Below are positions 16,026 to 30,200 of a DNA stretch of 64,000 nucleotides, piece by piece (positions within the stretch are counted from its first letter, which is position 1; each line of letters begins with the position of its first letter). Source of the stretch: Escherichia coli (lineage in GTDB: Bacteria; Pseudomonadota; Gammaproteobacteria; Enterobacterales; Enterobacteriaceae); assembly GCF_050920415.1 (NCBI RefSeq), contig NZ_CP169309.1, one strand, 5' to 3'. The notes below the pieces were generated by a model. That model was not told where the DNA came from, searched no databases, and saw only the letters and a list, made by a program, of their open reading frames with translations. The position numbers and the translations under genes are program-made.

Positions 16026-16060
16026 GCGCAAAAAGGCTGGTGACTAAAAAGTCACCAGCC
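16026..16060 (-). terminator. rplL-rpoB intergenic attenuator (partial terminator)
   Basis: Minus strand: GGCTGGTGACTTTTTAGTCACCAGCC followed by TTTTTGCG, about 40 nt after the rplL stop; matches the known L7/L12-beta attenuator position. Confidence 0.7.
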
Positions 16061-16099
16061 ATCAGCCTGATTTCTCAGGCTGCAACCGGAAGGGTTGGC

Positions 16100-22978: not shown

Positions 22979-23944
22979 TTATTTTTCTGCACTACGCAGG
23001 GATATTTCACCGCCCATCCAGGGTTTTATTATTCCATCCTGCTCAAGCAATAAAGCGCCTTGTTTGTCTATTCCGCGTGAAATGCCAAATATTTCTTTAT
23101 CACCAATGATAAGTTTCACTGGGCGATTAATAAAATTATCCAGTTTTTCCCAGCGCGACAGATAAGGTGCCAATCCTTCTTGCTCGAAGAGTTCCAGCGC
23201 CGCACGTAATTCACGTATTAGCATGGCCGCCAACGCATTACGATCGAGATTGATCCCAGCTTCCTGCAGCGTGATCCACCCCTGATTAACGATATTCTCT
23301 TCAACACGACGCATTGCCATGTTGATCCCGGCACCAATGACTATTTGCGCCGCATCGCCGGTTTTGCCAGTCAGCTCCACAAGAATACCTGCCAGCTTGC
23401 GATCCTGCAGATAGAGGTCATTCGGCCATTTAACACGAACTTTATCAGCGCCCAACTTGCGTAATACTTCCGCCATCACGATACCGATAACCAGACTTAA
23501 ACCAATCGCCGCAGCCGGGCCTTGTTCCAGACGCCAGAACATCGACAAATATAAGTTTGCGCCAAAAGGTGAAAACCATTTCCGACCTCGGCGACCACGT
23601 CCTGCCTGCTGGTATTCAGCAACGCAGGCATCACCCGATTTAAGCTCTCCGATACGATCAAGAAGGTACTGATTCGTGGAGTCAATAACTGGCAGCACGG
23701 CTACACTACCGCTATCCAGCTGACTCAATATCTGTTCAGCATTAAGTAACTGGATGGGCTCAGGCAGGCTGTATCCTTTACCCGGAACGGTAAAGACATC
23801 AACGCCCCAGTCACGCAGTGTTTGAATATGTTTATTAATGGCCGCCCGGCTCATTCCTAACGTTTCACCCAGCTGCTCACCAGAGTGAAATTCGCCATTC
23901 GCTAATAGCGTGATTAATTTTAGCGGAACGGTATTATCCTTCAT
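22979..23944 (-). CDS. birA: Biotin-[acetyl-CoA-carboxylase] ligase / bio operon repressor BirA, 321 aa
   Basis: ORF track; N-terminal HTH plus GRGRRGR biotin-binding loop. Confidence 0.95.
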
Positions 23945-24969
23945 GAAATCGTCTCCACTGCGCTAACTTCACCTGATGTACCAATAAAGCGAACTTCTGG
24001 CTCAAGCCAGACATTAAATTTTTCACCCACTTTCTGTCTTACATGATGTGCCAGGTGCACAATATCTTCGCTTTTTGCATTGCCTTCATTAATGAGAACT
24101 AACGCCTGTTGACGGTGTACCGCAGCCCCACCAATTTGTGTTCCTTTTAGCTGGCACTGATCGATAAGCCAACCAGCGGCCAGTTTTACTGAACCATCCG
24201 TCTGGGGATAATTTGGTGCTGTTGGAAATTGTGCCAGTAATGCTTTAGCCGTTTCGGCAGATACAACAGGGTTTTTGAAGAAACTACCGGCATTGCCATT
24301 CACTTTTGGATCAGGGAGTTTGGTGGTGCGCATATGACACACCGCATCAAATACTTGCTGTGGCGTTACGGTTGTAGGATCCAGACGAGTTAAGTCACCA
24401 TACGTTAGTACAGGTTGCCACTCTTTTGGCAGGCGCAGACCTACGGCTACAATGGCGAAGCGGTCCTGGTATTCATGTTTAAAAATACTGTCGCGATAGC
24501 CAAAACGGCACTCTTTGGCAGTTAAGCGCACTTGCTTGCCTGTCGCCAGTTCAACACAGTCAACATAAGCGCAAACTCGCTGTAATTCTACGCCATAAGC
24601 ACCAATATTCTGGATAGGTGATGAGCCGACACAACCAGGAATTAACGCCAGATTTTCCAGACCTGGCATACCTTCCTGCAAAGTGTATTTTACCAGGCGA
24701 TGCCAGTTTTCTCCGGCTCCTACATGTAAATACCACGCATCAGGTTCATCATGAATTTCGATACCTTTGATCCGGTTGATGATCACCGTGCCGCGATAGT
24801 CTTCCAGAAAAAGTACATTACTTCCTTCACCCAGAATAAGAACGGGTTGCCCTTCTGCGGTTGCATGCTGCCAGGCATTGAGTAGTTGTTGTTCGTCTTC
24901 GGCACATACAATGTGCTGAGCATTATGATCAATGCCAAATGTGTTCCAGGGTTTTAAGGAGTGGTTCAT
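23941..24969 (-). CDS. murB: UDP-N-acetylenolpyruvoylglucosamine reductase MurB, 342 aa
   Basis: ORF track; recognisable sequence; 4 nt overlap with birA. Confidence 0.95.
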
Positions 24970-25055
24970 AGCTGCTTTCCTGATGCAAAAACGAGGCTAG
25001 TTTACCGTATCTGTGGGGGGATGGCTTGTAGTTATGACGACAGGAAGAGTTTGTA

Positions 25056-25089
25056 GAAACGCAAAAAGGCCCAGTCTTCCGACTGGGCC
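25056..25089 (-). terminator. rRNA operon terminator (single hairpin, T1/T2-like)
   Basis: Minus strand: GGCCCAGTCGGAAGACTGGGCC followed by TTTTTGCGTTTC, about 15 nt after the 5S 3' end. Confidence 0.75.
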
Positions 25090-25103
25090 TTCTGCTTAAT
25101 TTG

Positions 25104-25223
25104 ATGCCTGGCAGTTCCCTACTCTCGCATGGGGAGACCCCACACTACCATCGGCGCTACGGCGTTTCACTTCTGAGTTCGGCATGGGGTCAGGTGGGAC
25201 CACCGCGCTAAGGCCGCCAGGCA
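25104..25223 (-). rRNA. rrfB: 5S ribosomal RNA (120 nt)
   Basis: Minus strand begins TGCCTGGCGGCC and ends CTGCCAGGCAT; full match to the E. coli 5S sequence as recalled. Confidence 0.95.
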
Positions 25224-25316
25224 AATTCTGTTTCATCAGACCGCTTCTGCGTTCTGATTTAATCTGTATCAGGCTGAAAATCTTCTCTCAATCCGCCAAA
25301 ACATCTTCGGCGTTGT

Positions 25317-28218
<2,902 letters not shown>

Positions 28219-28412
28219 TCACAACCCGAAAATGTTTCTTTCGATTCATCATCGTGTTGCGAAAATTTGAGAGACTCACGAACAACTTTCGTTGTTCAGT
28301 GTTTCAATTTTCAGCTTGATCCAGATTTTTAAAGAGCAAATATCTTAAACATGACTCGTAAGTCATCTTTAACGATATCAAGGTCGGCGACTTTCACTCA
28401 CAAACCAGCAAG

Positions 28413-28488
28413 TGGCGTCCCCTAGGGGATTCGAACCCCTGTTACCGCCGTGAAAGGGCGGTGTCCTGGGCCTCTAGACGAAGGGGAC
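28413..28488 (-). tRNA. gltT: tRNA-Glu (anticodon UUC) in the 16S-23S spacer
   Basis: Minus-strand sequence GTCCCCTTCGTCTAGAGGCCCAGGACACCGCCCTTTCACGGCGG...GACGCCA. Confidence 0.93.

Positions 28489-28658: not shown

Positions 28659-30200
<1,542 letters not shown>

Follow-up and report, generated by a model that had tools for sequence, protein, structure and literature searches.

A single hairpin between the rrnB 5S rRNA gene and murB is a common allele of this spacer in Escherichia coli

In E. coli K-12, the ends of the rrnA, rrnB and rrnD operons (in rrnD, after rrfF) share a module in which the 5S rRNA gene is followed by a terminator (T1), a spacer of about 120 nt, an 18-nt copy of the 5S 3' end and a second terminator (T2). 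The T1 sequence is GGCTCAGTCG[A/G]AAGACTGGGCC, the 5S copy is AACTGCCAGGCATCAAAT and T2 is GGCCATCCTGACGGATGGCC, with a variant at rrnD. As rrnB T1 we denote the first terminator past rrfB, which we take to be the naming of Brosius et al. 1981. The rrnG operon ends in a T2-type hairpin alone, located directly past 5S, and rrnE ends in a different single hairpin; rrnC and rrnH run on into tRNA genes. At rrnB of K-12, 5S and murB are 300 nt apart (rrfB end at 4171756, murB start at 4172057). We found no description in the literature of strain-to-strain variation of the rrnB terminator, and K-12 T1/T2 were met there only as parts of constructs.

The window analyzed here, a stretch of 64,000 nt of an E. 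coli genome, contains an rrnB operon on the minus strand in the order 16S, tRNA-Glu, 23S and 5S, as identified using Rfam and ARAGORN. The ends of the 5S gene (25104 and 25223) were set from an alignment with K-12 rrfB and direct reading of the sequence. The features of the operon and of the region between it and murB are:

28659-30200, minus strand: 16S rRNA (Rfam/ARAGORN operon call)
28413-28488, minus strand: tRNA-Glu (Rfam/ARAGORN operon call)
25317-28218, minus strand: 23S rRNA (Rfam/ARAGORN operon call)
25104-25223, minus strand: 5S rRNA (rrfB), the last rrnB gene (Rfam 5S_rRNA match at 25106-25221, 93.2 bits)
25090-25103, minus strand: AU-rich linker CAAATTAAGCAGAA, 14 nt, from the mature 5S 3' end to the hairpin (reading and K-12 alignment)
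25068-25089, minus strand: predicted terminator hairpin, GGCCCAGTC, GGAA loop, GACTGGGCC (fold; 9-bp perfect stem)
25063-25067, minus strand: T5 tract (U-tract), directly 3' of the stem (direct reading)
25040-25062, minus strand: 3' flank GCGTTTCTACAAACTCTTCCTGT, specific to the locus and the same as the sequence past K-12 rrnB T2
24995-25031, minus strand: conserved block CTACAAGCC...ATACGGTAAACTAGCC upstream of murB, downstream of the indel
23941-24969, minus strand: murB, the first gene past the predicted terminator (ORF list; RefSeq annotation of matching genomes)

On the transcribed strand, the spacer reads 5S, CAAATTAAGCAGAA, GGCCCAGTC GGAA GACTGGGCC, TTTTT and GCGTTTCTACAAACTCTT, followed by murB, whose ATG lies at 24969; the T5 tract is followed by GCGTTT. 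Direct reading gave a 5S-murB distance of 134 nt, and pairwise alignment with the K-12 spacer revealed one 166-column gap, with no K-12-type tandem of T1 and T2 in this spacer. The spacer has one hairpin, whose core is T1-like (20/22 nt) and whose flanks are both those of K-12 T2. An initial annotation of this DNA had reported a single hairpin and a distance of about 134 bp against about 300 in K-12, and had likened the stem to T1 and both flanks to T2. These observations were confirmed: the stem-loop differs from K-12 rrnB T1 at 2 of 22 positions, the linker CAAATTAAGCAGAA and the 3' sequence TTTTTGCGTTTCTACAAACTCTT are identical to the K-12 T2 flanks, K-12 T2 has the same T5 tract, and K-12 rrnB does have both T1 and T2, as stated there. 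In the following, L denotes the K-12 tandem, S1 the window type, and S2 a single hairpin with a T2 core.

Some further features of the operon were noted. The 5S gene of the window differs from K-12 rrfB by two adjacent bases at 25211-25212 (5S positions 12-13, GGCCTTAGC vs GGCAGTAGC), and the same two positions vary in strain E69, Kosakonia and Superficieibacter. One base of the 23S-5S spacer, at 25234, also differs from K-12. Rfam matches at gathering level included StyR-44 between tRNA-Glu and 23S (28226-28334, minus strand, 121.6 bits) and, elsewhere in the window, 'Pseudomonas sRNA P26' (16034-16095, minus strand, 74.5 bits).

The hairpin begins 14 nt past the 5S 3' end, on the minus strand and ahead of murB. 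The stem consists of nine perfect pairs, seven of which are G-C, and two A-U pairs are able to extend it. The 81-nt hairpin region folds at -28.7 kcal/mol (z = -4.19), and none of 200 shuffled sequences folds as well. The predicted energy of the core is -18.8 kcal/mol, compared with -15.8 for T1 and -14.7 for T2. Thus, a stable GC-rich stem-loop, a 3' T run and a position on the transcribed strand at the 3' end of the unit, all typical of intrinsic terminators, are found together.

To this we added a comparison of 11 S1/T1-type hairpins, a small sample of sequences related to each other. All of its 121 cells (100%) are paired, and three of the 11 pairs have compensatory changes on both sides: A-U is replaced by G-C in E. 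albertii and C-G by U-A in E. whittamii, while Phytobacter massiliensis has A-U in place of G-C. When the 3' partners of these 11 hairpins were slid by 1-3 columns as a control, pairing fell to 15-63%. The pairing of the stem, the T5 tract and the position therefore fit a canonical intrinsic terminator, and the hairpin at 25068-25089 together with T5 is predicted to act as such a Rho-independent signal. By analogy with K-12 9S RNA, RNase E may process the 3' end of the 5S precursor within the linker between 5S and the hairpin.

A rule-based scan for consensus terminators and promoters in 24500-25500 flagged nothing, and so not the hairpin either. This terminator scan likewise missed K-12 T2, whose flanks are identical to those of the hairpin, probably because the T tract is consumed by the stem extension; we regard such a result as a limit of the rule and did not count it against the terminator. 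When Rfam was searched permissively with the window spacer and with the K-12 T1-T2 region, all matches lay far below the gathering scores.

We then analyzed the distribution of the alleles in 5,426 complete E. coli genomes. The L-form query extended from the K-12 5S end to the murB start, and L was called when one match covered at least 80% of it. By this measure, the L form is present at murB in 2,513 of the 5,426 genomes (46%), and in the remaining genomes the match is split into two pieces, which span 233-235 nt rather than 401. In this search, 2,365 records fall within the 90-95% identity band, which is an upper estimate for S1; all 25 rows sampled from it were two-piece matches of 234-235 nt at murB, and the five loci fetched from the 93-95% identity class (O157:H7 Sakai, ST131 strain 2822, APEC O1:K1:H7, EC28 and SA186) were all S1. 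A second query, a 64-mer composed of the hairpin and the murB-specific flank, which cannot seed on T1 or T2, matched 2,963 genomes, with query coverage of at least 80% in 2,139 of the 5,426. Roughly 2,100-2,400 of the 5,426 complete genomes (39-44%) carry S1.

Since rrn regions are classic sites of repeat collapse, and many draft contigs break here, a collapsed assembly had to be considered for the short spacer, and the initial annotation had raised this worry itself. A 481-nt stretch of the window (23S end, 5S, spacer and murB) has full-length, one-piece matches in complete genomes, two strains being 100% identical and the other matches listed 99.6-99.8%. In 2013C-4282, one of the two identical strains, the locus was examined, and the motif AACTGCCAGGCATC occurs once, in a region identical to that of the window. 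These matches argue against an artefact, and the fact that independent laboratories have obtained over 2,000 complete genomes with S1 refutes it; we regard the probability of a misassembly as negligible. The lone hairpin is real and represents an ordinary, common E. coli allele, not a private event or an assembly error.

To place the alleles in a wider context, the pattern of the murB N-terminus was used to scan species-representative genomes, which yielded 20 loci, a thin sample in which many draft contigs (that of E. albertii too) break at or before the rrn repeat and which lacks E. fergusonii and Salmonella enterica subsp. enterica. E. whittamii is short at murB and has an S1-like core (GGCTCAGTC GAAA GACTGAGCC). 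E. albertii has an S1-like hairpin (GGCCCGGTC GAAA GACCGGGCC) beside the murB flank on a contig that is cut at the hairpin, so that short and long forms cannot be told apart. Short forms with T2-like cores are found at murB in Escherichia sp. E1V33 and in 'E. coli' E69, which is listed as a species representative of its own. In other genera, short forms with T2-like cores were detected in Superficieibacter, Kosakonia, Kluyvera cryocrescens, Phytobacter ursingii and a Citrobacter, an S1-like core in Phytobacter massiliensis, and the long cassette at murB in Kluyvera genomosp. 3, Salmonella diarizonae and Phytobacter diazotrophicus. A 1,245-nt contig labeled 'MAG: Flavobacterium psychrophilum' (QFQM01000754.1) has a 5S end, a terminator and a murB start which closely resemble those of Phytobacter and Kosakonia, and is probably mis-binned.

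All three of the resolvable non-coli Escherichia are short at murB, and S1 is present in ST131, APEC O1 and O157:H7 Sakai, which we take to represent phylogroups B2 and E. Based on these two observations, we lean toward the short form as the ancestral state at rrnB in E. coli, with the K-12 tandem acquired by conversion. On the other hand, the long cassette occurs at murB in the three genomes of other genera named above and is therefore old in the family, so that loss rather than gain could apply, and the core of two Escherichia outgroups is T2-like and not S1-like.

A recent collapse in the lineage of this strain, in which a K-12-like tandem would have lost about 166 nt through recombination between the AACTGCCAGGCATCAAAT motifs or between the two hairpins, might explain the short spacer. 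K-12 indeed has two 18-nt direct repeats, 168 nt apart, T1 and T2 have GGCCTTT in common, and a deletion-type product, S2, occurs in other strains. In O20:H12 strain Res13-Lact-PEB17-18, for example, the S2 spacer is 168 nt shorter than that of K-12 and otherwise K-12-like, and the identity bands of the L-query search place S2-like forms at about 10% of genomes. However, deletion between the AACTGCCAGGCATCAAAT repeats, the event proposed in the initial annotation, would leave the T2 core GGCCATCCTGACGGATGGCC, whereas the core in the window is GGCCCAGTCGGAAGACTGGGCC. A deletion between the GGCCTTT motifs would keep the T1 5' flank, from which the window differs at five positions. We found that no single deletion from a K-12-like tandem yields the window sequence, and a single-step origin of this kind was rejected. 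In addition, both the carriage of S1 by some 40% of complete genomes, among them those of Sakai, ST131 and APEC strains, and the S1-like hairpins beside murB in E. whittamii and E. albertii speak against a recent event, making such a collapse very improbable. S2 itself may equally be read as the state before insertion of the cassette.

The K-12 module differs from a single terminator by a cassette of 168 nt, comprising T1, the spacer and the 18-nt 5S copy, which is variably present across rrn operons. Its occurrence in the 5,426 complete genomes is:

rrnA-mobB, long form: 1,167 genomes (21.5%)
rrnB-murB, long form: 2,513 genomes (46%)
rrnD-yhdZ, long form: 3,852 genomes (71%)
Cassette spacer anywhere in the genome: 3,975 genomes
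Cassette spacer absent from the genome, e.g., CFT073: 1,451 genomes (27%)

In strains with the exact S1 of the window, the cassette was found after rrnD in RIVM_C036569 and after rrnE, beside yjaB, in isolate AF34. In K-12, the cassettes of rrnB and rrnA are identical at 214 of 215 positions, and the two sequences part immediately past the T tract of T2, as a conversion tract would predict. The cassette of rrnD is distinct (202/215), yet those of K-12 and RIVM_C036569 match at 213 of 215 positions. Taken together, the distribution of the cassette is consistent with the pattern expected from concerted evolution through gene conversion and unequal recombination among rrn ends.

S1 is also found at other operons: in ATCC 25922 it forms the sole terminator of rrnA, and in strain C2 that of rrnE, and ST131 genomes contain three copies. 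This observation, together with the near identity of the K-12 rrnA and rrnB cassettes and the composition of S1 itself (a T1-type core in T2 flanks), favors gene conversion, which had also been suggested in the initial annotation; here, the S1 cassette would have been copied from another rrn operon, or a T1-type core swapped into a single terminator of T2 type. As a general process conversion is plausible. However, the exact 64-mer of the window occurs only once, at rrnB, in most genomes of the window type, which leaves these genomes with no donor today, and the S1-like hairpins of E. whittamii, E. albertii and Phytobacter massiliensis suggest that the combination is old and not a recent mosaic. 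We therefore consider this origin only tentatively; it also overlaps with the explanation that we prefer, that of a long-standing allele, as it concerns the remote origin of S1 and not its identity.

Several additional observations were made on the cassette and on other rrn ends. Between Kluyvera genomosp. 3 and K-12 the cassette (458-625 of the K-12 rrnB locus sequence) matches at 204 of 216 positions, almost at the level of 5S, and the unique DNA past T2 is unalignable by eye. Such conservation suggests either constraint or homogenization along with the rrn operon. At rrnD of K-12 and RIVM_C036569, the 18-nt 5S remnant has the same G-to-A variant (CCAGACATC) as the adjacent rrfF 3' end, i.e., the remnant co-varies with the 5S end of its own operon. 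Past rrnE, strain C2 and isolate AF34 contain a REP-like sequence and then yjaB, and lack yjaA, which is next to rrnE in K-12; the rrnE terminator is S1 in C2 and the T1-T2 cassette in AF34, and not the CCCCGGTCC hairpin of K-12. In BLR(DE3), the best match to K-12 rrnB T1-T2 is not beside murB, covers 5S to T2 only and has no murB annotation over it, and BL21 has two copies of the cassette spacer; rrnB of B strains is probably not of the K-12 tandem type, and the cassette would sit at a different operon.

A relationship of the T1-T2 spacer to the tyrT/RtT repeats was considered and rejected, as a 27/32-nt match to the tyrT-tyrV spacer and a 17-bit RtT match, below threshold, are too weak. The likeness (GAACGTTGC..GCAACGGCCCGRAGGGTG) lies at 561-590 of the K-12 rrnB locus and 1601-1632 of the K-12 tyrT-tyrV locus, and may represent a small element shared by the ends of stable-RNA operons, or chance. 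It is also conceivable, although we consider it doubtful, that the cassette is a selected functional unit (it might insulate the genes downstream, for instance, or yield a processed RNA) that is shuffled by inter-operon recombination and is not neutral baggage, with S1, whose stem is stronger, as the alternative single-terminator solution.

The explanation that we consider very likely as a whole is that the window has a single intrinsic terminator which is one of several long-standing alleles of the rrnB-murB spacer. The hairpin at 25068-25089 with its T5 tract would be the sole rrnB terminator here, ending transcription 17-40 nt past 5S and ahead of the block upstream of murB. At least three alleles exist: L, with T1, the spacer of about 120 nt, the 18-nt 5S copy and T2; S1, with one hairpin whose CAGTCGGAAGACTG core lies in T2-type flanks; and S2, with one hairpin and a T2 core. 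The 168-nt cassette is an optional module, carried by different rrn operons in different lineages. Recombination among the seven operons, whose 5S and terminator flanks are almost identical, presumably shifts it from one to another or removes it. For rrnB, the short arrangement is the probable ancestral state in Escherichia, with the K-12 tandem probably having arisen later by conversion from a different operon. The anatomy of the locus, the frequencies of the alleles, their distribution over operons and species and the covariation of the stem were observed directly; termination itself, the recombination mechanism and the direction of change are what we infer from them.

The indel leaves the block at 24995-25031 upstream of murB untouched, as this block lies farther downstream. 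Within it, the motif A[CT]G[GT]TA[AC]ACTA (ACGGTAAACTA) is conserved upstream of murB at all 20 enterobacterial loci. The block is probably the murB promoter; a sigma-70 scan of 24500-25500 did not flag it.

For the biology of the operon, the difference from K-12 matters little, as the predicted element is a canonical intrinsic terminator and single-hairpin rrn ends already exist at rrnG and rrnE of K-12. The allele is present in thousands of public genomes and offers nothing mechanistically new. In practice, the K-12 rrnB T1-T2 region, which serves as the reference and is part of many expression vectors, is one allele among others, and differences from K-12 at rrn ends should not be read as misassemblies or as events peculiar to one strain. 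The variable placement of the cassette provides an example of concerted evolution at rrn 3' ends and could serve as a lineage marker. The only mildly novel aspect is the shuffling of the T1-spacer cassette at the level of the population combined with its strong conservation.

Comparison with the known terminators summarizes the position of the window hairpin. Like K-12 rrnB T1, it lies directly after 5S; besides matching at 20 of 22 nt, the two stem-loops share the same 9-bp stem register and a GNRA-type tetraloop, and the GGAA loop of the window is that of K-12 rrnA and rrnD T1. Unlike T1 of K-12 rrnB, it has other flanks (5' flank, TTAAGCAGAAGGCC vs AAAACGAAAGGCT; 3' flank, TTTTTGCG vs TTTCGTTTTATCTG), a C-G pair in place of the U.G wobble of K-12 T1, by which the core gains about 3 kcal/mol in stability, and neither the spacer nor a second terminator downstream. 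With K-12 rrnB T2 it shares the 14-nt 5' flank, the T5 tract, its distance from murB and, except for one substitution, the whole 3' flank to murB. However, its inner stem-loop is CAGTCGGAAGACTGG instead of the T2 sequence ATCCTGACGGATG, which is 2 nt longer, and it follows a real 5S gene, whereas K-12 T2 follows an 18-nt remnant.

The K-12 rrnG and rrnE ends are similar to the window in their general plan of 5S, a short AU-rich linker, one GC-rich hairpin and a T tract, and rrnG also has the T2-type flanks. Unlike the window, the core of rrnG is that of T2 and the rrnE stem (CCCCGGTCC...) is unrelated, and both are at other loci. The closest counterparts are the S1 spacers of Sakai, ST131 (JJ1886 and 2822), APEC O1:K1:H7, EC28 and SA186, which represent the same allele at the same locus with a length of 130-131 nt, and which differ from the window only by minor variants: an A to G change in the stem of Sakai that gives a G.U pair, T4 instead of T5 in ST131, and TTTAGCGAAAGG in the 5' flank of the B2 strains.
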